In this document: positions 1 to 61,868 of the stretch, one piece after another | How the letters are laid out: every line of letters starts with the position of its first letter | Numbering within the stretch: position 1 is the stretch's first letter | Source: Candidatus Kaelpia imicola | GTDB taxonomy: Bacteria; Omnitrophota; Gorgyraeia; Kaelpiales; Kaelpiaceae | DNA length: 64,000 nt | Assembly: GCA_030765505.1 (NCBI GenBank) | Contig: JAVCCL010000025.1 | Span: forward strand, 14,865 to 78,864 | Direction: 5' to 3' | Notes under the pieces: generated by a model | The model's input: only the letters and a program-made list of their open reading frames with translations | Database searches by the model: none | What the model was told of the DNA's origin: nothing | Position numbers and translations under genes: made by a program

Positions 1-359
1 TAGAGAATTTAGTACTGTTGCTGTTTGTATAAATATATTTTAAATAATGCAAGCTGCAGAGAAATGAGTTGTTCTATTTTAGATTAACTGTAGAAGCAAG
101 CTGTATTTGGACCATAGATTAGAAGCTATTTGAAAGCTTTATTTCGCAGGTTTGAAAAAAACAATAAAAATACTGCCAGCTAAAATATGGGGTGTTTTTG
201 AAAAAAAAGCACCTTCTTTCGAGAAATTCCAAAGGTACCGACTCTCTAAATAGCGAAAAAAAAACGGGATTTGAGAATAGTTGTCTCAGCTTATAAATAT
301 TGTAACTTCTATAATATATTGACTTTTTATCCTCTAAATTTTACCATTGGTTAGGAATA

Positions 360-1952
360 ATGTTAAAACAATTTAAATCTAATCCAAAAAATATAGCTCT
401 CATAGTTATAACAGGAACTATCCTTCGTCTATATAAATTAGGCTATCATGACTTCTGGTATGATGAAGCGATGAGCATAGCGTTGGCTCGAGTACCTCTA
501 AACATTACCACTCCCCCTCTCTACTATCTTCTTCTTAATATATGGATGAAATTGTTCCCAATTAATGAGTTTTATCTTCGATTACCTTCATTGCTTTTCA
601 GCGCTGTATCTATACTATTAATTTTCATTCTGGGTAAAAAATTATTCAGTCCCAACATTGCTCTTTTTGCAGCTGCTATAATGAGCTTTTGCCCTTTTCA
701 TATCTGGTATGCTCAAGAAGCCCGTCCCTATAGCCTGCTTTTATTGTTAGGCCTTTTATCTACTTTTTTACTTTATCAAGCCTTAACCAAAAACAAAACA
801 TACCTTCTAATATTATTTATATTAACTTCTGTTTTAGGACTCTATACAAGCTATTTTTTCGGAGTCCTTTTTGCCTGTCAATTATTGACTATACTTTTTC
901 TTTTCAAAAAATTTAAATTTAAATTCACAGGAATATTTTTCCTCTTTTTTACCCCGATATTTATCTTCTTACCCTGGCTATTAAAATTTTTAAGAAGATT
1001 ATGCTACATTTACCAAGGCTTCTGGATACCTGAACCTAATTTTAAATCTTTGCTGATAACTTTAGAAAATTTAAATGTTGGATACAATGCACTGCCCATT
1101 ATCTATATCCTCGCAAATGTTGTAACACTAATTTCAGCAATTTATATTCTTTTAAATATTAATAAATTACCCTGGAAAAAGGTAAATTTAGTTTTTATAT
1201 TATCTCTATTTTTACTTCCTATTTTCCTAATATTTGTATTTTCAAAATTTGTTACTTCCATCTATTTAGACCGAGCATTCTTAATATTTAGCCCTTATTA
1301 TTACTTGTTTTTAAGCCTGGGTATCTGCTCGATTAAACCGAAGCGATTCAAAAACATTGTAATCTCTCTATTTTTTATTTTACTCTTCTATGGAAATTAT
1401 GCTTATTTTACTGACAAGATGCCCTCATCAGAAATTCATCATATGGGGGCAATGCTTAAAAAACAGGTTAAACCAGCAGTTGAATTTATATCTAACAATT
1501 ATAAATCGGAAGATTTAATTGCCTATACTAATTTTTCTTTTCCAATATTATTCAATTATTATTCTTCACCTGAAGCTTTAGAGACTAACTCTCACACTAT
1601 TTTCAAATTCTTTAACAAGAAGAATTTACCGCAGCATACTTCTTCACACAAAACTTCTGCAAAGATGGTTAAAACCTTCGATCAGAAATACTTTATAATA
1701 CCGTCTGCTCAAGACCCCTACTGGAGAAGAGGATATGCAGCTGACTATAGTATTATTAATTTGGAGAAACATTCTCCGGCTAAAGAGATTAAGACCATTT
1801 GGCTTATTTCAACTAACTGGCAAAGAGATGGTCAGTTGGATGAAAATTCCCAAGCTGTAAACAGATGGATGGATAAAAATTATAATCTTATTCTTGAAAA
1901 AGAATTTCAGGGTATATTTATATTTAAATATGTTAAAAACTTCCGAGATTAA
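360..1952 (+). CDS. GT-C fold membrane glycosyltransferase (PMT_2 / ArnT-like, GT39/GT83 family)
   Basis: 530 aa with multiple TM helices in the N-terminal two thirds and a soluble C-terminal domain. N-terminal motif YHDFWYDEAMS and FYLRLPSLLFS are typical of the COG1807 polyprenyl-phosphate-sugar dependent glycosyltransferases. The gene is very AT-rich (about 25-33% GC). Confidence 0.65.
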   Translation: MLKQFKSNPKNIALIVITGTILRLYKLGYHDFWYDEAMSIALARVPLNITTPPLYYLLLNIWMKLFPINEFYLRLPSLLFSAVSILLIFILGKKLFSPNIALFAAAIMSFCPFHIWYAQEARPYSLLLLLGLLSTFLLYQALTKNKTYLLILFILTSVLGLYTSYFFGVLFACQLLTILFLFKKFKFKFTGIFFLFFTPIFIFLPWLLKFLRRLCYIYQGFWIPEPNFKSLLITLENLNVGYNALPIIYILANVVTLISAIYILLNINKLPWKKVNLVFILSLFLLPIFLIFVFSKFVTSIYLDRAFLIFSPYYYLFLSLGICSIKPKRFKNIVISLFFILLFYGNYAYFTDKMPSSEIHHMGAMLKKQVKPAVEFISNNYKSEDLIAYTNFSFPILFNYYSSPEALETNSHTIFKFFNKKNLPQHTSSHKTSAKMVKTFDQKYFIIPSAQDPYWRRGYAADYSIINLEKHSPAKEIKTIWLISTNWQRDGQLDENSQAVNRWMDKNYNLILEKEFQGIFIFKYVKNFRD

Positions 1953-3066
1953 TCTATTACTTTCTTTAATTCGGAATAGTAATCCTAAAATAAAAAAAGA
2001 TATAAATTGGAGCATATTTATACAGCATCTCATTACTCATGAATTAATGCCTTTTGCTTACCAAAGATTAAAACATAGAAAAGATATAGTTCCCTCCAGT
2101 ATCTATAGTCGTCTTAAAAACAGTTATTATTACAATCTATCCCGTGATAATAATCTCTGGCAGGAATTTTTAAATATTGTTGATAATTTTAAGCGCAGCA
2201 ATATAACCCTATTACCTATTAAAGGTATGGATTTATTTCTAAGATTCTATCCTGATTATTACTGGCGAGCTATGTCTGATATAGATATTTTGATAAAAGA
2301 AGAAGATTTCGATAAGAGTAATAAAATTTTATCCCAATTAGGCTATAAAAAAGAACTGTTAGGACATAGAGAAAGATATTGGCGTAAAAACCAATGTCAT
2401 GTTTCGTTTAAAAAATTAGGTATATTCTTAGAGGTTCACTGGGCATTGGATTTTAAAAGGAAAAATAGAATTTTATTAGATCATCTTTGGAGAAGAATAA
2501 AACAAGTAAATATAGAAAATAGAAAGATAGATATTTTATCTGCAGAAGATTCGGTATTTAGTCTTGCTTTACATAACCGCCGTATGGGAAGAATACTTTC
2601 TCTAAAGCAGATCTTAGATACATCAAATATTATAAATAGCACCCTGCGTTTTGACTGGAACTATATATTAAAAGAAACACAGCAAAGTAAATTACAGGCA
2701 ACAATTTATTTTTCTCTTACACAGGCGAAATTTTTTACTAATGCAAAAATACCTTCATCGTTTATCCAAAGACTGACTATACCCTGCTGGCAGAAAGAAA
2801 CAATTCAGAAATTTATATTCAACAATACATTTCCTCAAAATTTCAATTTTGATATCAAGAGAGACTATCTTAAAACACATTTTCTTATTTATGATAAAAT
2901 ACGAGAACCCATCTGTTACATTATAAATATTCCTTATGAGCAATTCTGCAAATTTTACAACTTGAAATTATATAGAGAAAAAACAAATCTTTTATACAGA
3001 ATGCGTTTAATTTTTATCCCGTTCAATCTGTTTAAAAAGATATTTTCCGGAAAAATACCTTTTTAA
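1894..3066 (+). CDS. Nucleotidyltransferase family protein (NTP_transf_5 / PF14907-like)
   Basis: LLPIKGMDLFLRFYPDYYWRAMSDIDILI matches the conserved block of the uncharacterised nucleotidyltransferase family that co-occurs with HprK-like kinases. The first Met overlaps the upstream GT-C gene by 59 nt, so the true start is probably MLKTSE at about 1930. The gene is AT-rich. Confidence 0.5.
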   Translation: MKKNFRVYLYLNMLKTSEINLLLSLIRNSNPKIKKDINWSIFIQHLITHELMPFAYQRLKHRKDIVPSSIYSRLKNSYYYNLSRDNNLWQEFLNIVDNFKRSNITLLPIKGMDLFLRFYPDYYWRAMSDIDILIKEEDFDKSNKILSQLGYKKELLGHRERYWRKNQCHVSFKKLGIFLEVHWALDFKRKNRILLDHLWRRIKQVNIENRKIDILSAEDSVFSLALHNRRMGRILSLKQILDTSNIINSTLRFDWNYILKETQQSKLQATIYFSLTQAKFFTNAKIPSSFIQRLTIPCWQKETIQKFIFNNTFPQNFNFDIKRDYLKTHFLIYDKIREPICYIINIPYEQFCKFYNLKLYREKTNLLYRMRLIFIPFNLFKKIFSGKIPF

Positions 3067-3484
3067 AAGGCCTAAGAATTATCTTTGCAATAGGGGCAAA
3101 TTTAACAATGGCCCAATTCAGATACTTACTCCATATTCTATCCAGCCTTGATATTCGACCATTTCGTAAAATACCAACAGCTTTACCTATGAGCTGTTCT
3201 TCAAGTATCGGTGAATTTAATTTTATCTGATTATCTCCGCGCGGATATAAGAAATATCTGTTTTGAGAGATGATTTTTTTTACCAAACGATGGCAGGTAA
3301 TCTGTTTATTAGAACGGTATACTATTATATCTCCGATATGTAAATTACTTGACTCTGTTTTCTTTACTACGACTTTCTCACCACTTTTAAGAAAAGGCCA
3401 CATACTAAAACCAACTGTCCCCAATACAAACATATCCTTCTTCTCTACCGCAAAATCTCTATTCATCTGTATCTTTAGATCCAT
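3032..3484 (-). CDS. S24/S26-type serine peptidase-like protein (LexA/signal-peptidase fold)
   Basis: 150 aa. GFSMWPFLKSGEKVVV resembles the GDSMxP..GD catalytic Ser motif of S24/S26 peptidases, and a downstream HRLVKK could provide the general-base Lys. It sits immediately downstream of, and is co-oriented with, the HprK-like kinase gene. Confidence 0.45.
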   Translation of the reverse strand: MDLKIQMNRDFAVEKKDMFVLGTVGFSMWPFLKSGEKVVVKKTESSNLHIGDIIVYRSNKQITCHRLVKKIISQNRYFLYPRGDNQIKLNSPILEEQLIGKAVGILRNGRISRLDRIWSKYLNWAIVKFAPIAKIILRPFKKVFFRKISF

Positions 3485-3528
3485 CTCTGATTTTGAGCCT
3501 CTACAGATCTATAATTCTAATTCCGTGC

Positions 3529-4539
3529 TTATCTGTGACTTACACTTCTTATAAACCGTACTATTTCTCTCTCTTTACGAAAACCTAATTTAAAACAGGG
3601 GATTTCCTTTATTAAGTCTAAACAGAAAGAACTTGAAATATTCATCTTATTTTCATTCCAAAAAACAGGAAATATATTAGGGAACATTAACTCAAAAGCT
3701 TTCCTATTACTTACATTCTTAATACTATTTTTTTTACTATGATAAATAAAGAGTATTTTCTTTAACTTTGCCGGCTCTGTTTCTGACTTAAGATAATCTT
3801 TAAAATCTCCATGCCAAGGTGTAGCATAAAGAGAATACTCCCCATTCTGTTTCCTTACAATCATTCTATCATCATTCAATATCTTTGCCCGGCTATATCT
3901 ATGCCATAATCTTGCCATTGTAGATTTCCCTGCCCCAGATGGACCAATAAATAACATTCCACTCCCATCAATATCTTTAATTCCTGTACCATGAAAAAAA
4001 ATTCCGTTCCTTTGAGTGAGATAATTTATTAAAAGAACCTGCAAAAAAGTATAAATTATCTGGTGACTATTCCACGACCACGAATCTTTACGAATTATAC
4101 TTGAATTATCCCGAATTTTTAATCTACGATGACCTGCTCCTGGTTCATAATAATTTATGTTTTTAAAGCTGTTTTCATCTGTATCCGATAAATAGACATC
4201 TCCCTGATTAAAATCTTTATTTAAAAAAATAATACCTTCTATTTCTCCCGGATTGTGGAGAGCATACTGCTCTAAAACAAATCCTCCACCCCTCTTATAT
4301 ATCCTCCAGTTATCTGCATTATCTACAGGATGGATTGTCTCAAACAATCTCTCTGCCTCACCTACTTTAGGTAACCTGTCTACTACTTTTATTTTAAGCC
4401 TGATAGCAGGGCTTTCTCTGCCTTTATAAACAAAATTAGAAAACCTCCAGTCATAGGATTTGTTTAAAGGTTTTAATGGAAATTTACTTTTACAGGATAT
4501 AATTATATCACCAATTTTTAATTTTAAACTATTATCCAT
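3529..4539 (-). CDS. HprK-related P-loop kinase (HPr kinase C-terminal-domain-like)
   Basis: 336 aa with Walker A GPSGAGKST within an HprK-like C-terminal domain of about 150 aa and a distinct N-terminal domain of about 180 aa. This resembles the HprK-related kinases of RiPP/lasso-type cassettes (for example the paeninodin kinase). The gene is AT-rich. Confidence 0.55.
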   Translation of the reverse strand: MDNSLKLKIGDIIISCKSKFPLKPLNKSYDWRFSNFVYKGRESPAIRLKIKVVDRLPKVGEAERLFETIHPVDNADNWRIYKRGGGFVLEQYALHNPGEIEGIIFLNKDFNQGDVYLSDTDENSFKNINYYEPGAGHRRLKIRDNSSIIRKDSWSWNSHQIIYTFLQVLLINYLTQRNGIFFHGTGIKDIDGSGMLFIGPSGAGKSTMARLWHRYSRAKILNDDRMIVRKQNGEYSLYATPWHGDFKDYLKSETEPAKLKKILFIYHSKKNSIKNVSNRKAFELMFPNIFPVFWNENKMNISSSFCLDLIKEIPCFKLGFRKEREIVRFIRSVSHR

Positions 4540-4905
4540 TTTTTATATACCGATTGATACCAGAACTAAATCATCTATAGAATATCCCATCAAACTATTA
4601 GTAAAGCCAAGAATACCTTAATACTTTTCCCGTCTTATGTTTCAGCACAAAAGAACCGTTCTGTAATTTTTGACTCAATTATAATTATCTAAAGTACCTT
4701 TTCTATATTCACCCTGTCAAATTTAAACATTCTTCTAAACAGTTTTATACCTTGTCTTTTTATCAAACAGTAAAAGTAAAAGTTTTTGAATCTTAAAAGT
4801 TCTCATTCTTGGTTAGAGTTAACTATCTTGGTCTTCTCAGGATGAAGTTTAAATTTTAATATCTCTTTTAATAAATTCCTTACCGCATTCTATTCTGACT
4901 AATTC

Positions 4906-5082
4906 TTATTTAATCTTATCCAAAATAACAAAATTACTACAGCAATGCAAATAAAATTTTTGTTTATGCTGCTGAGGAGTGAACTGTCCGGTTTTACAAA
5001 TGCTATAATTATCTCTCAAGAAAGGAGGCAATATGATAGAGAAGGCTATTATCACAATGGTGTTACAATAAAAATCACCCAC
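4906..5082 (-). CDS. Candidate small Cys-containing membrane peptide (58 aa, GTG start), hypothetical
   Basis: Open frame of 65 codons in about 25% GC DNA, which is unlikely by chance. GTG start with a weak AGGA 8 nt upstream. Sequence VGDFYCNTIVIIAFSIILPPFLRDNYSICKTGQFTPQQHKQKFYLHCCSNFVILDKIK. It lies between the secreted 157-aa gene and the kinase operon and is below the ORF-track length cutoff. Confidence 0.2.
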   Translation of the reverse strand: MGDFYCNTIVIIAFSIILPPFLRDNYSICKTGQFTPQQHKQKFYLHCCSNFVILDKIK

Positions 5083-5096
5083 TTTATATCCTAACT

Positions 5097-5570
5097 TCAG
5101 TTAATAATATACTGCATAATCACAACTCCCAGATCCATACAGCTTATACAGCCTCCGGATGAATTTAAATCTATAAGCATTGCAAGCTTATCAGGGTCTG
5201 GCTCTCTTCCCTGATAGATCAACCTATCCTCTAACTTCATAAGAGCAAACTCTATATAAGCAACACCCTTCTCATCTATTATCTCTATCTCAATTATTCC
5301 TGCATCATATAGGGCATCACTAAAGAACTCCTTAATGCTAGGATAATTGACAACAATATCATTAAAACTATTGTAATCATTTTTAGAGGCTTGGCGAAGC
5401 AGGTTATACATAACTTTAACATCTCCATTCTTCTCTCTATCTATCTCCTTAACTTTTTCCCTGATAATAGAATCTATGTTTAAATCACCGCGATAGGCAT
5501 AATCAGAAGCATAAGAACGGAGAGTTAGCAACAAATTAAATATCAGAAACAGCCAAACAAACTTTCCCAT
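5097..5570 (-). CDS. Secreted hypothetical protein (signal peptide)
   Basis: N-terminal hydrophobic signal MGKFVWLFLIFNLLLTLRSYA. No recognised domain. The C-terminus contains the Cys pair SSGGCISCMD. Confidence 0.4.
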   Translation of the reverse strand: MGKFVWLFLIFNLLLTLRSYASDYAYRGDLNIDSIIREKVKEIDREKNGDVKVMYNLLRQASKNDYNSFNDIVVNYPSIKEFFSDALYDAGIIEIEIIDEKGVAYIEFALMKLEDRLIYQGREPDPDKLAMLIDLNSSGGCISCMDLGVVIMQYIIN

Positions 5571-5574
5571 AATA

Positions 5575-6954
5575 TTATCTCCTTACAAGATAAGTAAAGT
5601 AAGCCGGGAATGTCTTAAGCAGAGCAAACTGAACATTGCGACTCTGCATAAAGTTCTTCCAGATAAACTCGGAGAAATAGTTCTCAACCATCAGAGCCGG
5701 AAAGATCACATCCATTCCGACTATCCAGTGAGAGTTTACTTCCGGCACACCCTCTCTATCTAAAGAGCCTGCATCCATCGATTCAACCAAAAGACCCGAC
5801 CTATCAAAGGCTTTATCGCGTATCTTATAGAACATTAGGAATGCGGGGTTATCCAAGATGGCATATTCCTGAAAAAATGGCATCGAACCTATTGCTGCAT
5901 AAGGAGCAACCGGCTTAATCCCGTTCTTTGAATTATAGAATCTCTCAGCTTCTCCAGCACCTGAAAGCGCTCCGCCAACTCTATCTCTATATTCCATAAC
6001 ACTTGAACCCATAGAGACCTTAGACCAGCATGCGCTTATACCAAAGATATTTTCTGGATAGTTATTATCAGAACACCATCTAATGTCAGCTAATACAGCA
6101 TCTTTCGTATTCTCCCACCAGTCAACATTGTAAAGGAGATCATTGTCCAACCTTCTAAAATCAATAAAAGCATGAGCAAAGAGGTAAGTAAAGAGTGAAC
6201 CGTACCAGGAATAGACATACTTACGGTCTTTATAGATACCCTCTTTCACTGTAATATTTCCAAAAGAGTCCCTGATATCTATTCTATAATCTACAACAGG
6301 TGAGCCCTGAGCAAGTATTGATATCAAAAGTATCTCATCTGTATAATAGTCCCAAAAACCAAAGAACCCGCTGTTCCAACCCATATGAAACTGCCTTCTA
6401 CCGCTATGAAAGAACTCTCTCCACTCTATATTGGAATAAAATTCATTCGCCTTCTCTCTACACTCAGGATAACCCTGAGATATCAGATATTCAGATGCTG
6501 TGATTATACCTGCTAAAAGAATCGAGGTATCTATTATCGAAACTTCAACTCCGGATTTATGAACAAAACTCTTACCCGATATATCTGGAACATAAAAATG
6601 ATAGAGAAAACCGGAAAAATTCTGACCTTTGGTTTTCTGAAGTTTTAAACAGCTTTCAACTGTCTCTAAAAACATGTCTTTCGCCTTCTCTTTTGAGATC
6701 AAACCTTTTTGAGCAGAGAGAGCCAGACCGGCAAGAGCAAAACCTGAAGTCGCTATATCAACCTCTTTGATGTAGGGCGAACTTTTATAAAGCCCGTTTA
6801 TCCTAAAGAACTTTTGATAGCAATAATTTAACTGCTGAGTCTGAAAATCCTTCAGCATATCTACGGCCTGATAAACCTCTAAATTTGAAGCTAAAACAGC
6901 TCTGACCTGAACTGTTAAAATCAGAGCAACTACTATCTCTCTTAATATCTTCAT
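5575..6954 (-). CDS. Secreted (alpha/alpha)6-barrel glycoside hydrolase-like protein (glucoamylase / DUF3131 / GH144-like, tentative)
   Basis: 459 aa with a signal peptide. The aromatic- and acidic-rich repeating pattern, and a length typical of six-hairpin glycosidases, suggest this fold. The family assignment is by recall only. Confidence 0.35.
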   Translation of the reverse strand: MKILREIVVALILTVQVRAVLASNLEVYQAVDMLKDFQTQQLNYCYQKFFRINGLYKSSPYIKEVDIATSGFALAGLALSAQKGLISKEKAKDMFLETVESCLKLQKTKGQNFSGFLYHFYVPDISGKSFVHKSGVEVSIIDTSILLAGIITASEYLISQGYPECREKANEFYSNIEWREFFHSGRRQFHMGWNSGFFGFWDYYTDEILLISILAQGSPVVDYRIDIRDSFGNITVKEGIYKDRKYVYSWYGSLFTYLFAHAFIDFRRLDNDLLYNVDWWENTKDAVLADIRWCSDNNYPENIFGISACWSKVSMGSSVMEYRDRVGGALSGAGEAERFYNSKNGIKPVAPYAAIGSMPFFQEYAILDNPAFLMFYKIRDKAFDRSGLLVESMDAGSLDREGVPEVNSHWIVGMDVIFPALMVENYFSEFIWKNFMQSRNVQFALLKTFPAYFTYLVRR

Positions 6955-7198
6955 CTTAACTTATAAATAGCAATATATATGCCAAATATAAATAACAGAG
7001 CTTATTACTGTAAGTAATTATAGACAAAGGTGTTAAGCGGAAAATGCTTTTTGACTCCCTAAAAAATTAAAAGTACAATAGTACAATATTTTCTAATCTA
7101 ACTTAATAAATATTTAATAAATGCATTTAAGATTATATTACCTAAATCGTTAAAATTAAATGGGGTTAGAGTAAACTTTAGTTGCAGTTTATGGGTAG

Positions 7199-7500
7199 AG
7201 GCAGGTCCGTAAGCCGAATTCTGTTTTAGATAACCATCTGTCTACTATCCGAATTGCTTCGGATATTTAGCGGTTAACCCGCCCGCTGGGCCGGGCCAGC
7301 CTTAAACGCGGACTATTCAACCTTAACTCGCATAGAGATTGCCACGTTTCACCTCTCCCAGTTCAGGGAGAACTCGTCTCTGCGGCTCTTATCCTGACAG
7401 GTCTAAAAAACCTGCGTTCCGACGTTATCGGAATATGCTCACCCTCTGAGTTCGGACTTTCCTCCCTTTCAAAAGAAAGAGCGGCTATCCAACCTGCCTC
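7199..7500 (-). ncRNA. rnpB: RNase P RNA (bacterial type A, compact, about 300 nt)
   Basis: The minus-strand transcript begins GAGGCAGG and ends CCUGCCUC, forming the P1 helix. It contains GGGAGGAAAGUCCGAAC (CR-I/P4 5' strand), GAUAAGAGCCGCAG (GGUAAGAGC-like) and ACAGAAUUCGGCUUA (CR-V/P4 3' strand). The P4 pairing UCCGAA/UUCGGA covaries relative to the E. coli UCCGGG/CCCGGC. The region is GC-rich and free of ORFs. Confidence 0.65.
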
Positions 7501-8641: not shown

Positions 8642-8715
8642 TGGGCGATAGAGGACTCGAACCTCCGACATCCACGATGTGAACGTGGCGCTCTAACCAG
8701 CTGAGCTAACCGCCC
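8642..8715 (-). tRNA. tRNA-Val (anticodon CAC)
   Basis: The minus-strand sequence GGGCGGTTAGCTCAGCTGGTTAGAGCGCCACGTTCACATCGTGGATGTCGGAGGTTCGAGTCCTCTATCGCCCA folds into a cloverleaf with anticodon loop UUCACAU. CCA is not encoded. Confidence 0.85.
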
Positions 8716-8744
8716 GCTCAACACTTTCTAACCATACTATTAAA

Positions 8745-8817
8745 TGGTCCCGCCAGGACTTGAACCTGGAACCAACTGATTATGAGTCAGCTGCTCTGCC
8801 AATTGAGCTACGAGACC
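8745..8817 (-). tRNA. tRNA-Met (anticodon CAU; elongator type, or tRNA-Ile2 if lysidinylated)
   Basis: The minus-strand sequence GGTCTCGTAGCTCAATTGGCAGAGCAGCTGACTCATAATCAGTTGGTTCCAGGTTCAAGTCCTGGCGGGACCA has a G1-C72 pair, so it is not an initiator. The anticodon loop is CUCAUAA. Confidence 0.8.
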
Positions 8818-8890
8818 AATCAATCAGCAAATGTTAATTTTAGCATATCAAATTAAAAAAGCAACACAACTTTACTAAAACTTGCCCAGT

Positions 8891-9706
8891 TTAGGAACCA
8901 AACCGTTTAGGTTTAATCCTTGCCGAGTTACCTTCTAAAGATATGATTCTTAACATCTCCTGGTGCAATAACCCGTTAGAAGAGAGTATATTAGGATAGA
9001 AAGGATTGAAATCTCCCCCGTCCATTCGCGTAACCCTGCCTCCAGCCTCTTCAATGAGGAGAATACCGGCTGCGGTATCCCAGGGATTCAAGCCCAGTTC
9101 CCAGAAACCATCCAATCTACCAGATGCGACATAAGCAAGGTCTAAAGCCGCAGCACCGCATCGACGTACACCTTGAGCATGGTATATGAAATTAGAGAAA
9201 TGTTCTATGTTGGTATCTGACTGATCTTTAAAATCATAGTAGAATCCTGTTGCAACTAAGCTACGGCTTATCTTATCTATTTTCGAGACTGAAATCTTCT
9301 TTCCGTTTAAGCAGGCACCCTCTTTTGATATTGCTGAAAAGATCTCTTTTCGCGTTGGGTCATAGATAACTCCAAGAATAGGATTCTTATCTTTTAACAA
9401 TGCTATTGAAACACAAAAAACCGGAAAAGTATGAGAGAAATTATTGGTACCATCTATCGGATCAACCAGCCAGTAATACTCACTATCGGCATCTCCTCCG
9501 AACTCCTCACCTACAAAATCAAAAGCAGGATACTTCCCAAAGAGATAACTCTTTATCATCTCCTCAGACCTTTTGTCTATTTCGGTGACCAGATTTCGCT
9601 CACCTTTAAACTCAATATTTTTTACCCTGCCAAGATTAGATAGAACATAATCTCCTGCATTTAAAGCAATATACTGAGAAGATTTGAGTATCTTCTTTAG
9701 ATTCAA
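8891..9706 (-). CDS. suhB: Inositol monophosphatase family protein
   Basis: WLVDPIDGTNNF and GAAALDLAYVASG motifs. The start codon appears to be TTG. Confidence 0.8.
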   Translation of the reverse strand: MNLKKILKSSQYIALNAGDYVLSNLGRVKNIEFKGERNLVTEIDKRSEEMIKSYLFGKYPAFDFVGEEFGGDADSEYYWLVDPIDGTNNFSHTFPVFCVSIALLKDKNPILGVIYDPTRKEIFSAISKEGACLNGKKISVSKIDKISRSLVATGFYYDFKDQSDTNIEHFSNFIYHAQGVRRCGAAALDLAYVASGRLDGFWELGLNPWDTAAGILLIEEAGGRVTRMDGGDFNPFYPNILSSNGLLHQEMLRIISLEGNSARIKPKRFGS

Positions 9707-9895: not shown

Positions 9896-11599
9896 CTAAC
9901 TTAAAGGACTCTTCTTTATATCTCTAAAGACTCTCTCTATTTTTAGCTTACCTCTAGGCTTATTGATATCATCCGGAATTACAATCTTATTGTTTACAAG
10001 AGATGCCCCAATAACACCACTCATCGACTGATGAAACAACCAGCCGGCAGCGCCGGTATACCCACTCCAGATCATACGTCCAACCTCGAAATTAGTAAGA
10101 ATATCAGCCGGCTGCTTATTGGGCTGACCGCCGTAAATCTCTATCTTATCTTCTCCAACATGGCCAATGGGTGTTATCTTACGCCAAAGCCTATAACTGA
10201 TGGCTCTATATTCATCAGCCTTCTTATAGTCACCCAACTTCTCAAAACGCTCTGTGAGAACTCTGGAAGCTCTTATGAGCCACTGTACACCGTGACAATA
10301 CATTCCGTTTTCACGCACCCCCTCAGGATACCTTGAACTCCTTCCAAGGTAAGGCTTGGTATCCTCGCGTAACGCCGGCCAACCAAGCAAAATAACATCT
10401 TCTTTCTCAAGTACTTCCAATGCAGTATGGAACACTATCAACGACCTTTCTAAATTTACACCCGCTTTAACAGCCCAGGCAGCCGTTAAAGCATCTATCT
10501 CCCAGACACCGCTATCTTTTATTCCAATCTCTGTACCGTCATCGTGAATGGCACGTAAATACCTATCCTCTCTCCATGTACCTTCAAGAACATCTTCAAG
10601 TTTCTGCATCTTTCTTAGGTAGTGTTCTTTACGACCATGACCCTCTCTCTTTTCAATTATAGGAAGCATATGCCTTAAAACATAGTAGAGGAAGAACCCG
10701 AGCCATATACTCTCACCCCGCCCTTCGCTTCCTATTTCATCCAGGCCATCATTCCAATCTCCCGTTCTTATCAAGGGTATTCCATGTTCTCCCAATCGTT
10801 TTTCTAAAATAAGATCTATAGATCTTAAAGCATGCTTATAAACAGAATCTGCTCTGGTTGAACGATGATAGATATGACCCCAGCCTGTCTTATTATGCGG
10901 CAAATCGGCAAACGGAAACTCTGACCATACATATGATGTCATTTCATCCAATAACGAATAATCACCGGTAGTCCTAACATACTCTACAATGGCCCAGGGA
11001 AGCCAGAGCGGGTTATCTGAAGCATGGGAACGACAGGCAAAAGCAGTTCTGCCATCAAGCTGAGTAAAGAACCAGTGATAGACATCGCCTTCGAAGAATT
11101 GATGAGAAGCATGGAGAATAATCTGCTTTCTAGCCAGCGCAGGGTCTACCCAAATAAGGTTTACAGAGTCCTGAAGCTGATCCCTGAAACCATAGGCTCC
11201 GCTTGTTTGGTAAAATCCCCTCCGAGCCCAGATTCTCTCCGCCAAAGCTTGATATTTAAGCCAATTTTGATAGCGATCAAACTCAACTTGATTCGTCTTC
11301 ACCTCTACTGTTCCCATTAAATTCAACCACCAACTACGCGTATTATTAAGACTCTTCTTAACATAATCCAAACTTTTATACTTTTTGGCTAATTTAAGTG
11401 CTTTATCTCTCTTATCTGTCTGACCAAGAATAAATGCGATTGTGTAATCTCCGCCTGCAGGAATATCCAGGGTGCTTAAAAGGGCTGCTATCTGTCTATC
11501 ATCGTAGAGCTGAGCATTGTCAGCCTCACCCTTCTCTACCATAAACGGATGAGTTATACCTCTACCCAAACCAAAGAATCTCCCCCTCTTTGTCTCCAC
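9896..11599 (-). CDS. GH94 catalytic (alpha/alpha)6 domain (cellobiose phosphorylase / cyclic beta-1,2-glucan synthase C-terminal-like); probably the 3' part of the upstream gene
   Basis: RGRFFGLGRG and SGAYGFRDQLQD are GH94 signature blocks. The reading frame stays open upstream of the GTG start as far as 11638, and it overlaps the 3' end of the 1519-aa ORF in a different frame. Confidence 0.6.
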   Translation of the reverse strand: METKRGRFFGLGRGITHPFMVEKGEADNAQLYDDRQIAALLSTLDIPAGGDYTIAFILGQTDKRDKALKLAKKYKSLDYVKKSLNNTRSWWLNLMGTVEVKTNQVEFDRYQNWLKYQALAERIWARRGFYQTSGAYGFRDQLQDSVNLIWVDPALARKQIILHASHQFFEGDVYHWFFTQLDGRTAFACRSHASDNPLWLPWAIVEYVRTTGDYSLLDEMTSYVWSEFPFADLPHNKTGWGHIYHRSTRADSVYKHALRSIDLILEKRLGEHGIPLIRTGDWNDGLDEIGSEGRGESIWLGFFLYYVLRHMLPIIEKREGHGRKEHYLRKMQKLEDVLEGTWREDRYLRAIHDDGTEIGIKDSGVWEIDALTAAWAVKAGVNLERSLIVFHTALEVLEKEDVILLGWPALREDTKPYLGRSSRYPEGVRENGMYCHGVQWLIRASRVLTERFEKLGDYKKADEYRAISYRLWRKITPIGHVGEDKIEIYGGQPNKQPADILTNFEVGRMIWSGYTGAAGWLFHQSMSGVIGASLVNNKIVIPDDINKPRGKLKIERVFRDIKKSPLS

Positions 11600-14500
11600 A
11601 CCCTCAGAGAGAGTTGAGCTTGAAACAAAAGCCAGCCTTTACGGAACATATTACGAGGATTATAGAATAAAAGGACATCATTATCTTTGTCATAGCTTAT
11701 CAATAACTCACCTGAGCGCTCAGGCATAAACTCAAGCACCATCTGGAAATAAGGAGCAATGCGGAATCTTTTTTTACGGCCGCTATTGTTCTTTATTTTC
11801 AAAAGATATACACCTAAAGGGTCATCCGGCGGTACAAAAACTGTAAGCTCGGTTGAAATATCCTTTCCTTTCATATGAAAGACCGCACTGCCATCGACAC
11901 TGAACTCAGAGATATTTTTGACACTATTATCATTAAGCGGAAAATAGGTCGGAGAGTACCAGCTCTCTTCATCTATATCGTATAGATATATCGCCTCTCC
12001 GGGAATCTCTCTTGTAACCGTATCAGGCCAGTCTGGAGTCAAGCGGTTCTGCTGAGAGTTACCATTACAAGATGTATGAAGACCGCGATTTGTAACCATA
12101 ACAGAGTGCCCCAGAGAGTTAGACATAGCATGGTCATAAGGTCTGGGAGTATAGGGAGTACGGACTAAAATTTTGTTTCCATTATCCATATATTCAGAAT
12201 AAGGCTGCGGTGTTCCGGGAAGAATCTCTCCATGACCGATAAGTAATCTCTTCTCTCTCCTGGGTTCATAACCTACGGCAGTCTGCTTAGGTTGTAACAG
12301 TCTCTTCACCAGATCAAGAGCGCCGTTACGGCTCTCCTCGTATCCAATCATAAGATGTATAGTCTTAGAAGAGTTAGGGTCGAGCTCCACGTTAAGCATA
12401 AGACTCCCAATCGGGTCAAATGTCGGATAACGCTCGGTATTCTCGGCCTTCATGAAATCTAAAGTCTCAAGCACTCTTGGATTCCAGATGCTCTGAGCAC
12501 GGCCAATGAAGTCCATTCTGGAAAATAGAATACCTTCGGGGGAAATGTCTGTCGCTAAAATACCCATAGAGTTAGTACATTTTTGCCAGGATAGAAGTGT
12601 ATTAAAACCATTGATATACTCCATCTCAGGAAATAACCGCGCATACTGAGTATGGAACCTGTCATGCAAACCTCCATTAAGCACCCACTCTAAGTAGGGA
12701 ACAACTTTTAAATTACGCTTGCTATCTTTAAGGTTTTTAATATTTATCTTCCATATCTCCGCCCTGCTCTCCTGATCAGATAAGGTTATATCAATAGTAG
12801 TTTTAATGCCGTTTGAAGAGTTGATAACTTTAAGAGAATCTGAGTTCATCTTGATCTCAGAAGGTTGAAACTTATCTTCCGGAAAATTACCCACTACAGG
12901 CCAATAGCGCTTTTCAGCATCGGCAGAGTTGTCAACTAAATACAGAATTCTACCGCAAGGATCTATAATATCGTAAGAACGTCTGGTAATATCATATTCC
13001 GGAGGATAGACGCCACTCTTCCTGTGGTCAACCTGACTATATATCTCTCCATTCTCCTTAAGAAATGTCCTGTACCCAACTCTATTGGCTATATGGTAGG
13101 TCTTTATGAATCTCTTTCTTGAACGCCGTCTAAAAGAACGGACCAAAAACGATATTCCGCTAAAAATAAAAACAGCAACAAAGAATGATAGCAACCTCTG
13201 GTATAGAACAACACCTTCTAAGAAAGCAAAAATACCTCCTCCAAGAGAATCACGTATAGCCGCTGATCTACTCCAGGCATAATTCCACTCCTCACCTCTT
13301 GGGAGATAAAACGGAATTAAAAGAGGGCCCCAGGTACAGAATCTTTTAACCGCTTCCGGAATGTAGCGTTGAGCTGTATCTATTTTGATAAACCGCGCAA
13401 CTTTATCATCAAGCTTATCCAGTCCTATAAAACTTAAGTTGACCAACGTTGCGACACGCAGACCCATATGGTCCATCCAGATAAGAACCCTAAAGAAATC
13501 AAAAGCAAGTACATATACAAAGAGATTAAGGCTCCACTGTCTAAATGCCTGATCTGACATTGTTAAGTTATGATATATAGCAGAGAGCGTACGAATAGCT
13601 CCATCCTGATTATACCAGGTTGGATCCGGCATCATCCGCAAAAAGGTAAATATAATTGGCGACATCCATAAACCCCAACGCAAAACATATATCATATGTT
13701 CTATAAGCTGAGAGAATCCTTCTCTTGAGAAGAAAAATTTAATTGGTGCCTTATGTTTTTCAAAAAAAGCAAGAAGAAAGACTTTATTTATGGCAAATAA
13801 CCAGGCGGCTATAGCCCAGTTAATAACTCCGGCAAGCGATTCATCAAACAATAATCTGACTCCGCCGCGATAGATTCCCAGATCTATCCGCCCCCACTTA
13901 TTGACTAAAGGGTATGTAATATATTCCATAGCTTTAAACCCCGAGCTTGTATACAGCTTGAACTTCGCTACAACAACAGGGACCTGTAAAGCATCAAGAT
14001 AGAAAGCCAACGCACTACCAATAAAAACACCTATGATAGCATCGACAAAATACCGTCTCCAGGATTGAATTCGCCCCTGAGATTTAAATCTATAGGCAGC
14101 GTCTCTTAAAATACTTATCCCTGCAGATGAGAAGATACCAAAGACTGCACCAAATATAACTCTGCCCGACATATTCCAGTTAATAAAATCACTGCTTAAA
14201 GCATAGGCAACCCCTATGCCTAAAATAGCTCCTCTTGCATAAAGCACATGGTCACGATAGCTGTAACGTGCCCTCTGAAAAAAAGGCAGGCTACCATCAA
14301 AAGTCTCTATAATGGTTTTAAACAACGGTAGGGCCAGTGCCCCGATAAAAATACCCAAAAGAAGGGGAATCTTCTCTGCCGATAGTTGCAATAGATTAAA
14401 ATCCAGGAGCAGATAGATTGAGTACATGAACCCCATTAGAAGAGCACTGTAAGCCATTCCCTTTTTTACGCCTGTCTTTACATGTCCAGTCACGCTTTCC

Positions 14501-17703: not shown

Positions 17704-17765
17704 ATCTTTAAAAAGTCAAGGGCTGTAGACAGATAGATGTTGCCATCTACTCTTTTGATTTAAGA

Positions 17766-17841
17766 CGGGGACGACGGGAATCGAACCCGCGATCACCAGA
17801 TCGACAGTCTGGGGTCTTAGGCCAGGCTAGACGACGTCCCC
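17766..17841 (-). tRNA. tRNA-Asp (anticodon GUC)
   Basis: The minus-strand sequence GGGGACGTCGTCTAGCCTGGCCTAAGACCCCAGACTGTCGATCTGGTGATCGCGGGTTCGATTCCCGTCGTCCCCG has anticodon loop CUGUCGA and discriminator G. CCA is not encoded. Confidence 0.85.
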
Positions 17842-17898
17842 GTAAATGAGGTACGAATGCAAATAGTAATAGATTTTTTTATATCTGTCAACACTTAA

Positions 17899-45561: not shown

Positions 45562-45590
45562 ACCACAGACTTCAAAAGACTCCTATTACT

Positions 45591-45665
45591 GGAGCGAGTG
45601 AGGGGGATCGAACCCCCGACATCCAGCTTGGGAAGCTGACGTTCTACCGCTGAACTACACTCGCT
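45591..45665 (-). tRNA. tRNA-Gly (anticodon CCC), CCA encoded
   Basis: The minus-strand sequence GCGAGTGTAGTTCAGCGGTAGAACGTCAGCTTCCCAAGCTGGATGTCGGGGGTTCGATCCCCCTCACTCGCTCCA has anticodon loop UUCCCAA with U33 and A37, and discriminator U as in bacterial Gly tRNAs. Confidence 0.8.
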
Positions 45666-61403: not shown

Positions 61404-61868
61404 CTATTCATATACTTCCATCTCCTTTTCGCAGCGCTGAAGAAAAGTAAGAAACCACTTTGGAATATTGTATCCCAGCTTCACGGCTTTGTTATAACCC
61501 TTCTTTGCCAATTCTATACTTGGTTCTTCCTTCTTAAGATAAGCCACAGCTATAGCATAATTGGCTTTTGGAGAGTCAGGGTTTAATTTTAAAGATTGAT
61601 TAAGCGAATTTATCGCTTTCTCAAAATTGCCTTCTTCCATATAGCATATCCCTAATTCACGCCAGGCTTTGGCATATTCAGGATTAAGTTTTAAAGCTTC
61701 CTCAAAGCAGTTTTTTGCCTTAGCAATATCTCTATTTATATAATGCAATCTGCCTGATTTAAAATATTCTCCTGATTCTTGAGCTGCTGCTGGTTTTTGC
61801 AAAAATGCTGCAAAACCTATTAGCATTAGAAGAAGACCTATTGAATTAAATTTCTTTTTAAGTTTCAT
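61404..61868 (-). CDS. TPR repeat protein with signal peptide
   Basis: Three TPR-like units (AKNCFEEALKLNPEYAKAWRELGICY...). Confidence 0.65.
   Translation of the reverse strand: MKLKKKFNSIGLLLMLIGFAAFLQKPAAAQESGEYFKSGRLHYINRDIAKAKNCFEEALKLNPEYAKAWRELGICYMEEGNFEKAINSLNQSLKLNPDSPKANYAIAVAYLKKEEPSIELAKKGYNKAVKLGYNIPKWFLTFLQRCEKEMEVYE

Follow-up and report, generated by a model that had tools for sequence, protein, structure and literature searches.

Among the closest described systems is SynChlorMet (SCM), which is represented in TIGRFAMs/NCBIfam by ScmC (TIGR04249), ScmD (TIGR04248), ScmE (TIGR04250) and ScmF (TIGR04251) and in Pfam by PF27840 ('ScmC'); a literature search found no paper naming it. 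A further point of comparison is offered by GtrB/GT-C pairs, in which a polyprenol-phosphate-sugar synthase works with a PMT/ArnT-like transferase, the classic arrangement being a small GT2 gene directly before the GT-C gene. In lasso-peptide biosynthesis, it has been demonstrated that the kinases PadeK, ThcoK and PsmK phosphorylate the conserved C-terminal serine of the lasso precursor via a His-Lys-Asp-Asp motif (PMC9266682), and that the hexose carried on the phosphate of pseudomycoidin requires PsmN (PMC6993621).

The DNA analysed here, termed the window, is a 64-kb stretch from a metagenome-assembled genome (MAG) of Candidatus Kaelpia imicola (Omnitrophota). The gene island at its start probably belongs to a family of radical-SAM/PqqD RiPP cassettes related to SCM, in which its four genes would constitute a tailoring and processing module. 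The four-gene set is not a self-contained pathway, and the cassette family is widespread and experimentally uncharacterised.

An acquired island at the edge of the window

Positions 1-5096 of the window form the right end of an island gained by horizontal transfer. In the sister species K. aquatica the site of the island is empty, and homology between the two species (85.6% identity), which runs rightwards from 5096, breaks off exactly there, which identifies the segment as acquired. This right edge, the island/backbone junction at 5096/5097, is spanned by two independent ENA contigs with 100% and 99.7% identity over 4886-5685 (L091 and L092). GC content is 30.4% at 1-5096 versus 39.1% for the remaining window, and the four island genes are the lowest in GC among 55 ORFs compared (z -2.4 to -5.0), their GC3 being likewise low. 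The empty site, the sharp breakpoint, the reproduced junction and the low GC and GC3 make the island accessory, as a preliminary description of this DNA had proposed from composition, although the values of 20-33% against 40-45% GC given there become 26-34% against 35-46% in a sliding-window measure. The limits of 360 to 5100 assigned at that time have to be abandoned as well, given that the left edge lies beyond position 1 and the island is therefore not wholly inside the window. Its visible part comprises the following features:

1..359, no strand: non-coding island DNA 5' of the GT-C gene, GC about 31%
360..1952, plus strand: GT-C glycosyltransferase, 530 aa (PMT_2 5e-14, 53 bits against a cutoff of 26)
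1894..3066, plus strand: NTP_transf_5 (PF14907) nucleotidyltransferase-fold protein, 390 aa (PF14907 4e-43)
3032..3484, minus strand: S24/S26-like serine peptidase, 150 aa (Peptidase_S24 5e-8, above cutoff)
3529..4539, minus strand: ScmC-family (Pfam PF27840) P-loop protein of PEPCK/HprK fold, 336 aa (precomputed PF27840 match)
4540..5096, no strand: AT-rich spacer of 557 nt at the right island edge, ending at the K. aquatica alignment breakpoint

Within 1..359 there is no ORF of at least 40 aa and no homology to the K. aquatica syntenic region, and a sigma-70-like TTGACT-17-TACCAT at 319-347 is no better than chance expectation. In the spacer at 4540..5096, neither a convincing ORF nor any remnant of radical SAM or PqqD genes is seen; in related cassettes, radical SAM and PqqD genes occupy the equivalent spot.

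Predicted functions of the four island proteins

The four domain assignments made earlier (GT-C, NTP_transf_5, S24/S26-like and HprK-like) were upheld by HMM searches and, for the HprK-like protein, by AlphaFold/Foldseek. The 336-aa protein, 100% identical to MDP8216456 of Ca. Kaelpia imicola, has 649 homologues, the majority from Omnitrophota. Its HMM matches are weak only (ScmC 3.6e-5, HprK_rel_B 7e-5, Hpr_kinase_C 0.015); for its AlphaFold2 model (pLDDT 85.8), the best 50 Foldseek matches in the PDB are solely ATP-PEPCK (3e-7) and HprK/P (6e-6, TM about 0.5 on the target). H183, K205, D223 and D224, which are invariant in the ScmC family and all kept in the Kaelpia protein, correspond to the catalytic His-Lys-Asp-Asp motif of the lasso-peptide kinases (PMC9266682), and the protein is presumed to be a peptide Ser/Thr kinase. 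Its closest relatives (44-46% identity) also adjoin radical SAM genes.

The peptidase gene lies 44 nt downstream of the kinase gene on the same strand, in keeping with the single operon suggested before. Residues G25, S27, M28, P30, G51, H65, R66, D84 and G100, invariant in 35 of 35 cassette peptidases, are all kept in Kaelpia, and alignment to LexA pairs Ser119 with S27 and Lys156 with H65. Judging from its sequence, the enzyme is thus of the Ser/His type (ER/archaeal signal-peptidase-like), with His at the general-base position expected by the preliminary description to hold the Lys of a Ser/Lys dyad. The match to the archaeal-type signal peptidase I model TIGR02228 falls just below its cutoff (1e-12; 48.2 against 51.85), and no N-terminal membrane anchor was seen by eye in the Kaelpia protein. 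Since its gene belongs to a cytoplasmic module for RiPP tailoring, in which the domain is at times part of a fusion protein, its presumed role is the removal of leaders and not of secretory signal peptides; fusions of the S24 domain to NTP_transf_5 occur in either order (L003 and L001).

The NTP_transf_5 gene starts with TTG at 1894 or ATG at 1930. Its product shares 40% identity with the NTP5 part of the fused NTP5-S24 protein in L003 and retains 58 of the 60 positions at least 85% conserved among 31 cassette homologues, including D129 and D131, the counterparts of the essential D134 and D136 of PsmN (PMC6993621). It is this ORF that forms the convergent junction, sharing 35 nt tail-to-tail with the ORF of the peptidase; the GT-C gene, previously placed at that junction, lies upstream, its 3' end overlapping the NTP_transf_5 start. 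The GT-C protein, named family 39 glycosyltransferase by NCBI (MDP8216453), is 46% and 37% identical to the cassette GT-Cs of L011 and L047, respectively, and the three share about 150 invariant columns, including the loop-1 WYDE and the C-terminal NW.RDG.L.ENS motif.

Related cassettes in Omnitrophota

Such RiPP gene islands are common in Omnitrophota, and the radical SAM/PqqD pair is the predicted core of the cassette type. A survey of 80 GTDB loci with ScmC homologues gave 77 that have radical SAM genes, 64 with PqqD, 54 with NTP5 and/or S24 and 41 with an ABC exporter, while tblastn with a few leader sequences as query placed leader-bearing ORFs in 42. Omnitrophota cassettes have two to six radical SAM genes each, whose products match PqqE-like and SPASM maturases, including ScmE and ScmF; the PqqD protein has ScmD as its best match, and B12-dependent radical SAM proteins and FlmR/OhkR-type arginases are added in some loci. 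The precursors of these relatives share the leader consensus KPKFKPxITRVKLNPEQAVL, and a leader HMM run against loci L001-L092 detected 87 precursors in 55 loci, with Ser as the C-terminal residue in 68 (78%) and Thr in 11 (13%), together 91%. They form a distinct family with neither a Pfam nor an NCBIfam model.

The expectation that the island genes would be syntenic elsewhere was borne out, the recurrent pairs being kinase-then-peptidase and GT-C-then-nucleotidyltransferase. All four gene types occur together in L047, L011 and L096, each of which also carries radical SAM and PqqD genes, and in L047 and L011 precursors too. The order in L047 is GT-C, NTP5, S24, PqqD, two radical SAM genes, ScmC, precursor, GT4, precursor, GT4, radical SAM and ABC, and in L096 GT2 and GT-C on the plus strand converge with NTP5, S24, ScmC, PqqD and two radical SAM genes on the minus strand. 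The HprK-like kinase and the PF14907 protein are RiPP-type tailoring genes, as had been supposed.

A putative order of steps

By analogy with the systems introduced above, we infer the following enzymatic steps. A PqqD-type recognition protein would bind the leader-bearing precursor, which in relatives consists of the leader, CxC, a variable core and a terminal Ser or Thr, and radical SAM enzymes would cross-link or otherwise modify it. The C-terminal Ser/Thr would then be phosphorylated by the ScmC-like HprK-fold kinase, and the NTP_transf_5 protein could add a nucleotidyl or hexose group to the phosphate, in the way PsmN does in pseudomycoidin. The leader would be cleaved off in the cytoplasm by the Ser/His S26-like peptidase and, in the GT-C variant only, a polyprenol-phosphate-sugar-dependent GT-C might glycosylate the product after export.

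The missing core and alternative readings

Radical SAM, PqqD, cassette-type ABC exporter and precursor genes were not detected anywhere in the 64-kb window, which holds, of the SCM members, the ScmC-like one only. The earlier statement that a recognisable core enzyme is lacking therefore stands for the window, but not for the cassette type, whose radical SAM/PqqD core is well recognisable; a pathway without such a core is not supported, given that radical SAM, PqqD and leader-bearing precursors accompany the kinase in relatives. The contig measures 81.6 kb, of which 17.6 kb lie outside the window. The accessions of the window proteins begin with MDP8216453 and end at about MDP8216515. As Obg (MDP8216521) already belongs to another contig, 101 kb long, there is room for no more than five proteins after the window on the 81.6-kb contig. 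Assuming contig-by-contig numbering of GenBank protein accessions and ordinary gene lengths, this suggests that most of the outside sequence, roughly 8-17 kb, adjoins the GT-C gene directly upstream. Since most of the out-of-window contig probably adjoins the island, the absence of the core may reflect a view cut by the window; it may otherwise reflect secondary loss. We consider it fairly likely that the radical SAM, PqqD, precursor and exporter genes sit on the contig directly upstream of the GT-C gene.

It is possible, if rather unlikely, that the island is instead an orphaned remnant, in which a once complete cassette lost its radical SAM, PqqD and precursor genes through a deletion or rearrangement at the right edge that left an inverted kinase-peptidase pair beside GT-C and NTP5, with no substrate or with a precursor encoded elsewhere. 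On the kinase-gene side, where core genes normally sit, the island stops after the 557-nt spacer, and in 40 of 60 relatives a radical SAM gene is found no more than 500 nt away on that side. The Kaelpia arrangement would need the nearest radical SAM gene to lie more than 3.5 kb from the kinase gene; as no related locus shows such a distance, the gene order departs from the usual one and may be that of a remnant. That such cassettes do decay is illustrated by L011 and L012, with their ScmC fragments and precursors shortened to 38 aa, and three divergent loci (L066, L071, L075) have an ScmC-like gene with no radical SAM gene detected. However, the four ORFs are full-length and keep all family-invariant catalytic residues and, in NTP5, 58 of 60 conserved positions, which speaks against a long period of neutral decay; much of the out-of-window contig probably adjoins GT-C at a site that is empty in K. 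aquatica, and L107, L114 and L132 do have their radical SAM and PqqD genes upstream of GT-C.

That the GT-C is an unrelated cell-envelope glycosyltransferase merely adjoining RiPP tailoring genes is improbable. PMT_2 proteins are common envelope enzymes, a GT-C homologue is found in only 3 of the 80 loci retrieved via the kinase, and many weaker GT-C relatives have no cassette genes nearby. Against this, cassette-type radical SAM genes are present in 43 of 79 loci of its metagenome relatives and NTP_transf_5 is present in 30 of the 79, directly 3' of GT-C in 22 of the 59 with room for it; in Kaelpia the ORF overlaps the NTP5 start and has the low GC of the island. The Kaelpia GT-C belongs to a subfamily recurrently placed directly 5' of a PF14907 gene in cassettes.

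Still more doubtful is an autonomous core-less pathway, as envisaged in the preliminary description, in which the four enzymes would phosphorylate, nucleotidylate and/or glycosylate a peptide or surface protein without a radical SAM step. It would agree with a window devoid of any other RiPP-like gene, with the few distant loci in which no radical SAM gene is detectable and with the frequent location of related cassettes among envelope-polysaccharide genes (Poly_export, Wzz, Wzy_C, GT2, GT4, WecG), but in 57 of 60 relatives with enough flank the distance from the kinase gene to a radical SAM gene is at most 3.5 kb, every four-gene locus has the core pair, and no candidate substrate ORF was found in the window. 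Assignment to a lasso-peptide cluster, to the HPr-rel-A/B type or to anti-phage defence is very improbable, the neighbourhood data having in effect refuted it. HprK-like kinases do co-occur with PF14907 proteins in lasso clusters and HprK_rel_B is weakly matched, but with 22 bits against a cutoff of 200, while lasso cyclase, B1 and B2 were found neither in window searches nor in the Pfam listings of related cassettes, and PADLOC yields only a Walker-A-level JetC match (1.2e-3).

Comparison with known systems

Like GtrB/GT-C periplasmic glycosylation pairs, the Kaelpia GT-C has a PMT_2 domain and a loop-1 Asp-Glu motif, and a small GT2 gene directly precedes GT-C in L011 and L096; unlike them, the GT2 partner is absent from the window, and the acceptor, in those pairs O-antigen, lipid A or protein Ser/Thr, would conceivably be a RiPP or its phospho-Ser appendage. 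The peptidase shares the GxSMxP catalytic-Ser box, the HR box and the GD box with ER/archaeal-type (S26B, SipW-like) signal peptidase I, TIGR02228 being its best NCBIfam match.

With the lasso kinases and PsmN, the locus has in common the two protein families side by side in a RiPP context, the His-Lys-Asp-Asp residues invariant in the ScmC family, the conserved D-x-D motif of the PF14907-like PsmN and, in Omnitrophota precursors, a C-terminal residue that is mostly Ser and otherwise often Thr. It differs in a core chemistry that would be radical SAM, with no lasso cyclase or B1/B2 protease, in leader removal presumably by a Ser/His S26-like peptidase instead of the B2 cysteine protease, and in a kinase that falls below the cutoffs of HprK models, has a beta-rich domain added at the N-terminus and aligns with PEPCK along its full length.

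The likeness to SCM lies in PF27840, carried by the Kaelpia kinase-like protein, in the ScmD-best PqqD and the PqqE-like radical SAM proteins matching ScmE/ScmF that stand beside the kinase in relatives, and in a cassette defined by bioinformatics whose product is not known. In contrast to SCM, none of the four equivalog models, ScmC to ScmF, comes near its cutoff (ScmC 23 against 125 bits, ScmD 37 against 100), and the Omnitrophota cassettes often include radical SAM proteins of the B12-dependent kind, arginase-TPR proteins of the FlmR/OhkR type, NTP_transf_5 either alone or fused to an S24 domain, and an ABC exporter, sometimes GT2, GT4 or GT-C, and have a precursor family of their own.

Gene content and origin of the island

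The first 5.1 kb of the window is occupied by four genes on two strands, followed by a spacer.

Gene layout of the first 5.1 kb of the window
360-1952, plus strand: GT-C glycosyltransferase ORF, 530 aa
1894-3066, plus strand: NTP_transf_5 ORF, 390 aa, overlapping the 3' end of the GT-C ORF
3032-3484, minus strand: S24/S26-like peptidase ORF, 150 aa, in a 35-nt tail-to-tail overlap (3032-3066) with the NTP_transf_5 ORF
3529-4539, minus strand: ScmC-like kinase ORF, 336 aa, on the strand of the peptidase ORF and 44 nt upstream of it
4540-5096, no strand: non-coding spacer, 557 nt, with a minus-strand gene run beyond

No terminator-like structure was found between the convergent NTP_transf_5 and peptidase ORFs when 3032-3066 was scanned, and the promoter and terminator scans gave results at chance level. 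The window shows an extreme strand bias: between 3032 and 63984, ORFs of 120 aa or more all lie on the minus strand, bar five short plus-strand ORFs that overlap longer minus-strand ones, and the only plus-strand ORFs not overlapped in this way are those of the GT-C and NTP_transf_5 genes.

It had been suggested in the preliminary description that this segment is acquired DNA, and the reading of a horizontally acquired island specific to Candidatus Kaelpia imicola is now well supported by composition and by comparison with the sister species K. aquatica. GC content is 30.4% at positions 1-5096 against 39.1% in the remainder of the window, and the four genes have the lowest GC of the 55 ORFs compared, with a low GC3 as well. 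The K. aquatica backbone is the same (GH94, inositol phosphatase, Zn-ribbon protein, RNase H, a glucoamylase-family protein 88% identical to that of the window, and a 158-aa protein), and the 158-aa protein is directly followed there by a 192-aa protein, rplU, rpmA, obg, proB and proA, the syntenic site being empty of all four island genes. The window aligns to K. aquatica at 85.6% nucleotide identity over a stretch that reaches at least to position 12000 on one side and breaks off precisely at 5096 on the other, a single base beyond the stop codon of the 157-aa gene; no K. aquatica gene from beyond the junction occurs in the window. An assembly chimera is ruled out, because two independent ENA contigs span the 5096/5097 junction at 100% and 99.7% identity; the ENA contigs of the neighbouring 157-aa gene are 761 bp long. 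Since K. aquatica proteins are in the database searched and no ScmC homologue in it exceeds 46% identity to that of Kaelpia, the island is confined to the K. imicola lineage.

At the visible island edge there is no sign of an integrase, a tRNA or a flanking repeat. In the spacer, at about 4787-4870 on the minus strand, a 28-aa open stretch, NAVRNLLKEILKFKLHPEKTKIVNSNQE, resembles by eye a reverse-transcriptase motif of the group II intron or retron kind; it has no Pfam match and no group II intron RNA lies nearby, and as an unproven hint of a mobile-element scar at the island edge it is not used here as evidence.

Other features of the window
7194-7500, minus strand: bacterial RNase P RNA class A (172.5 bits, gathering score 100), between the glucoamylase-family and RNase H genes
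8642-8818, 17764-17842 and 45590-45664, minus strand: four tRNA genes (Val-CAC, Met-CAT, Asp-GTC, Gly-CCC), none at the island edge
9896-16113, minus strand: giant GH94-type gene, split between ORFs 9896-11599 and 11554-16113, which overlap and are read in different frames; the frame changes near 11608-11632

The GH94-type gene of K. aquatica is a single ORF of 2064 aa (858-7052 of L093, the K. aquatica locus), and its split in the window is a frameshift, a pseudogene or an assembly error.

Cassettes related to the island

The genomic surroundings of related kinases were surveyed on three long contigs and then in 80 GTDB loci recovered with an alignment of ScmC, the family of the window kinase, gene content being tallied by tblastn. 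A recurring cassette emerged, composed of a PqqD-family protein (best NCBIfam match ScmD), two to six radical SAM proteins (PqqE-like or SPASM-type, matching ScmE and ScmF among others, some of them B12-dependent), an ScmC-like protein, an ABC exporter without a C39 peptidase domain, an NTP_transf_5 protein, an S24-like peptidase and one to six small ORFs.

Occurrence of cassette genes in the 80 kinase-side loci
Radical SAM: 77/80
PqqD: 64/80
NTP_transf_5 and/or S24-like peptidase: 54/80
Leader-bearing ORFs: 42/80
ABC exporter: 41/80
TPR/arginase: 21/80
GT-C: 3/80

The radical SAM genes keep close to the kinase gene. In the 60 loci whose upstream flank is 3 kb or longer, one lies within 500 nt upstream of ScmC in 40 and within 3.5 kb on either side in 57, further off in none and undetected in three; the closest relatives of the Kaelpia kinase (44-46% identity) are also flanked by such genes.

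The small ORFs include a large family of precursor peptides. A profile of their conserved leader (M-x-K-K-P-K-F-K-P-x-I-T-R-V-K-L-N-P-E-Q-A-V-L-x-C-x-C), run over loci L001-L092 of our collection of related loci, retrieved 87 small ORFs, for example in L005 4678-6945 and L052 177-7978; they are spread over 55 loci, with as many as six in one, and have a median length of 67 aa, hypervariable cores and a CxC (or CC) motif. Their last residue is Ser in 68 of the 87 (78%) and Thr in 11 (13%), together 91%, and 37 end in 'SS'; those with another ending are mostly truncated ORFs of 38-43 aa. Two representative precursors were scanned against Pfam and NCBIfam and gave no match.

Several further features of these loci deserve mention. 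Many cassettes (21/80; L001 2201-3652, L005 1910-3331) encode a TPR-repeat fusion protein whose N-terminal domain is of the FlmR/OhkR peptide-arginase type, and many encode B12-dependent radical SAM methyltransferase-like proteins; together these suggest Arg-to-ornithine conversion and C-methylation in some members of the family. Envelope-polysaccharide genes (Poly_export, Wzz/GNVR, Wzy_C, GT2, GT4, WecG) often surround the cassettes, as in the flanks of L001, L005, L088 and L089, which may be relevant to a surface-linked product. At 8817-9094 and 4612-4728 of L011 and L012, a cassette that is complete in other respects also contains a fragment of ScmC and a precursor truncated to 38 aa, which shows that duplication and decay occur within such loci.

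The four proteins and their families

Profile scans upheld three of the four assignments of the preliminary description, namely PMT_2, NTP_transf_5 and Peptidase_S24, all of which score above cutoff. The fourth, an HprK-related kinase, is backed by fold and catalytic residues even though the HMM cutoffs are not reached.

The kinase sequence is that of MDP8216456 (P9L98_03955) from the Ca. Kaelpia imicola MAG, at 100% identity. A precomputed match to Pfam PF27840.1, labelled 'ScmC' in neighbourhood listings, exists for the window kinase (protein P0001) and for nearly all of the 120 homologues shown. Its other profile matches are weak and far below cutoffs (ScmC 3.6e-5, HprK_rel_B 7e-5, PEPCK 1e-3, Hpr_kinase_C 0.015) and include ABC and AAA models at the level of the Walker A motif. 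The NCBIfam equivalog TIGR04249 ScmC is not reached (23.2 vs 125 bits), nor are the HprK-type models Hpr_kinase_C (PF07475; 15.3 vs 33.3), TIGR00679 (17.4 vs 240) and HprK_rel_B (22 vs 200). PDB searches by sequence, with the ScmC profile or its P-loop segment, were likewise ambiguous, returning only Walker-A-level ABC transporter matches and weak HprK matches, so a fold search was needed to settle the identity of the protein. An AlphaFold2 model built on 35 homologues (pLDDT 85.8) matched exclusively ATP-PEPCK (best 3.3e-7) or HprK/P (6e-6, TM about 0.5 on a 170-residue target) among the best 50 of 65 Foldseek PDB matches at E <= 0.001, with no ABC ATPase among those 50. The family alignment of 35 sequences has 37 invariant columns, including H183, K205 (in the Walker A motif GxSGAGKS) and D223-D224 (in NDDR), and the HprK alignment covers ScmC segment 183-237. 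A His-Lys-Asp-Asp set is catalytic in the HprK-type kinases that phosphorylate lasso-peptide precursors (PMC9266682), and order and spacing indicate that H183, K205, D223 and D224 are probably equivalent to that tetrad residue by residue. The PEPCK/HprK fold and the invariant His-Lys-Asp-Asp set rule out an ordinary ABC/ATPase fragment. As a side observation, the ScmC protein of L001 is 461 aa long and carries a 160-residue N-terminal extension.

The NTP_transf_5 protein matches PF14907 at 148.1 bits (cutoff 31.2), residues 36-279 aligning to profile positions 2-245 of 249, and retains 58 of the 60 highly conserved positions, including a D-x-D motif. D129 and D131, present in the Kaelpia protein and conserved in at least 85% of 31 cassette homologues, would by motif correspond to D134/D136, the metal-binding D-x-D of the lasso-peptide protein PsmN. 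NTP_transf_5 and peptidase domains are fused in both orders in related cassettes, which is a classic sign of functional coupling.

NTP_transf_5/Ser-His peptidase fusion genes
L003 1574-3421: NTP_transf_5 at residues 6-378, S24 at 406-477
L001 15259-16923: S24 at residues 36-149, NTP_transf_5 at 214-476

The stand-alone peptidase of the window matches Pfam Peptidase_S24 at 33.2 bits (cutoff 23.3) and stays below cutoff with Pfam S26 (17.8 vs 22.9), its best NCBIfam match being the archaeal-type signal peptidase I TIGR02228 (1e-12, 48.2 bits vs cutoff 51.85). In a comparison set of 35 homologous domains extracted from related loci, G25, S27, M28, P30, G51, H65, R66, D84 and G100 are invariant (35/35), and at each of the 14 positions where 80% or more of the sequences agree, the Kaelpia protein has the consensus residue. 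Alignment with LexA places Ser119 on S27 (in GFSMWP) and the general base Lys156 on H65. Because S27 and H65 are invariant and H65 pairs with that lysine, the family is predicted to be a Ser/His one (SMxP, HR and GD boxes), like the ER, archaeal and SipW-type (S26B) signal peptidases. The Ser/Lys dyad of S24 proper, which had been expected here, is not borne out, the general-base position holding His rather than Lys in 35/35 sequences. A single-sequence AlphaFold model of the peptidase (pLDDT 43) was too poor for use.

The GT-C protein matches PMT_2 at 53.2 bits (cutoff 26.1). Homologues are rare among the kinase-side loci; the three cassette GT-Cs (window, L047, L011) have about 150 invariant columns in common, including a distinctive C-terminal motif and an acidic WYDE motif (D35, E36) in the putative first extracytoplasmic loop. 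In both L047 and L011 the GT-C gene lies directly upstream of NTP_transf_5, as in the window. A small GT2 precedes the GT-C in L011; GT2 plus GT-C is how a polyprenol-phosphate-sugar synthase and a GT-C enzyme are usually paired. A metagenome search with the alignment of the three GT-Cs yielded 79 loci, with cassette-type radical SAM genes in 43, NTP_transf_5 in 30, leader-type ORFs in 17 and ScmC in 12; NTP_transf_5 follows the GT-C immediately in 22 of the 59 loci with room downstream.

Cassette layouts with a GT-C gene
L047: GT-C, NTP_transf_5, S24, PqqD, radical SAM, radical SAM, ScmC, precursor, GT4, precursor, GT4, radical SAM, ABC
L096, the layout closest to that of Kaelpia: GT2 and GT-C (plus strand) converging on NTP_transf_5, S24, ScmC, PqqD, radical SAM, radical SAM (minus strand)

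To judge from these counts and from the layouts of L096, L047 and L011, the GT-C-NTP_transf_5 pair recurs as a true accessory of this cassette family, and the expectation that the four genes travel together in other genomes was borne out in the same three loci. A 54-aa protein of the same cluster as the GT-C (P0122) was also considered as a GT-C relative and is unrelated to it in sequence.

Probable location of the core genes

In the relatives, the core of the cassette consists of the radical SAM, PqqD and precursor genes. Searches of the 64 kb by tblastn with all cassette proteins, by the leader profile that found precursors elsewhere and by motif scans revealed no radical SAM, PqqD, exporter or leader-bearing precursor gene; the sole ABC match, near 34 kb, is a generic ATPase of 22-24% identity. 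At system level, the PqqD and radical SAM/SPASM genes that stand beside the ScmC-like gene in an Scm-like RiPP cassette are therefore absent from the window. A metagenome scan with ScmC-specific peptides gave no match, and the GTDB representative contigs retrieved with the ScmC alignment include none of K. imicola.

The numbering of the GenBank proteins, which rises along the window, bears on where the rest of the island lies.

GenBank protein accessions of window genes
GT-C: MDP8216453
S24-like peptidase: MDP8216455
ScmC: MDP8216456
Gene at 61404-61868: MDP8216514
Last complete gene in the window: MDP8216515 (inferred)

These proteins are all encoded on one contig of 81,601 bp. MDP8216521, the Obg protein of K. 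imicola (85% identity to its K. aquatica counterpart), is encoded on another contig, of 101,028 bp. Since MDP8216515 ends the window and MDP8216521 is on the other contig, no more than five proteins can be encoded on the window's own contig past its end. Given this numbering and genes of typical length, the greater part of the remaining 17.6 kb of that contig (about 8-17 kb) should therefore lie upstream of position 1, adjoining the GT-C gene, where the sister species has an empty site. The start of the 101-kb contig is evidently the rplU-obg side of this site, so that the assembly is interrupted either within the island or at its far boundary.

These points, the radical SAM and PqqD genes found upstream of the GT-C in loci L107, L114 and L132 and the intactness of the four ORFs make it more likely than not that a complete cassette continues upstream of the GT-C gene. 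An orphaned remnant of a cassette, for which we see a real if smaller chance, would account for the atypical Kaelpia layout, in which the kinase-peptidase operon is inverted and the island ends where the radical SAM genes of that operon would be expected, the nearest such gene never lying more than 3.5 kb from ScmC in relatives; all four ORFs, however, are intact. The autonomous, core-less pathway of the preliminary description is unlikely, given that loci with the four-gene set always also hold radical SAM and PqqD genes.

The four genes of the window thus represent either part of a cassette whose remainder is out of view or the relic of one, and the cassette is a variant of a kind that is known but uncharacterised. 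What stood of the earlier interpretation is the recognition of RiPP-type tailoring genes within an island. The Ser/Lys dyad did not stand, nor did the claim that a recognisable core enzyme is lacking: the core in relatives is radical SAM/PqqD, and its apparent lack here may well be a matter of the frame of view. Most of the local puzzle goes away once the four genes are seen as the accessory end of a cassette type that can be recognised.

Proposed chemistry and comparison with known systems

What remains of interest is the family. Homologues of the kinase alone number 649 at E <= 1e-3, mostly from Omnitrophota and at about 40% identity, pointing to hundreds of related cassettes in Omnitrophota and some other anaerobe lineages, with a shared set of Ser/Thr-ending precursors that no model covers, an HprK-fold kinase with an apparently intact tetrad, a PF14907 protein, a putative Ser/His peptidase and occasionally a GT-C. 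For this uncharacterised RiPP class, that set of features predicts phosphorylation at the C-terminus with later elaboration of the phosphate, and leader removal by an S26-like enzyme. PADLOC returned nothing meaningful, and by that tool this is not a defence system. It is conceivable, and we hold this with low confidence, that the island and its upstream part belong to an undescribed RiPP class, widespread in Omnitrophota, whose products carry a C-terminal phospho-Ser/Thr extended by NTP_transf_5 and then by GT-C. Under such a scheme the ScmC-type kinase would install the phosphate on the C-terminal Ser/Thr of a radical-SAM-modified peptide, NTP_transf_5 would extend that phosphate and, in the GT-C variant, a polyprenol-sugar-dependent GT-C would extend it further outside the membrane. 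If true, this would be the first GT-C-dependent glycosylation of a RiPP and possibly a cell-surface-attached peptide; the Omnitrophota are uncultured, ultra-small, host-associated bacteria.

At system level, the closest known system is SynChlorMet (SCM), defined by TIGRFAMs/NCBIfam models and Pfam PF27840. The proteins of Kaelpia and other Omnitrophota are related to it, but they score far below the equivalog cutoffs and the composition of their cassettes differs, and for these reasons they are regarded as a variant rather than a member of SCM. No description of this cassette, or of SCM by name, was found in the literature searched (SynChlorMet/ScmC, Omnitrophota RiPPs).

For the enzymes, the nearest precedent is found in the kinase and PsmN of the phosphorylated lasso peptides. 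The lasso precursor ends in a strictly conserved Ser that is phosphorylated by the HprK-type kinases PadeK, ThcoK and PsmK (PMC9266682; PMC6993621), and the PF14907-like PsmN is required for the addition of one or two hexoses to that phosphate (PMC6993621). A lasso cluster proper is ruled out by the absence of cyclase and B proteins, no Asn-synthetase-like cyclase or B1/B2 protein having been found among the six window proteins scanned or in the Pfam listings of related cassettes. The scaffold enzymes differ, but the same two enzyme families stand beside precursors with the same C-terminal signature, and for this reason the best-supported inference, by analogy, is that kinase and NTP_transf_5 carry out in the Omnitrophota cassettes the same chemistry as the lasso pair, which would extend the kinase/PsmN tailoring logic beyond lasso peptides.
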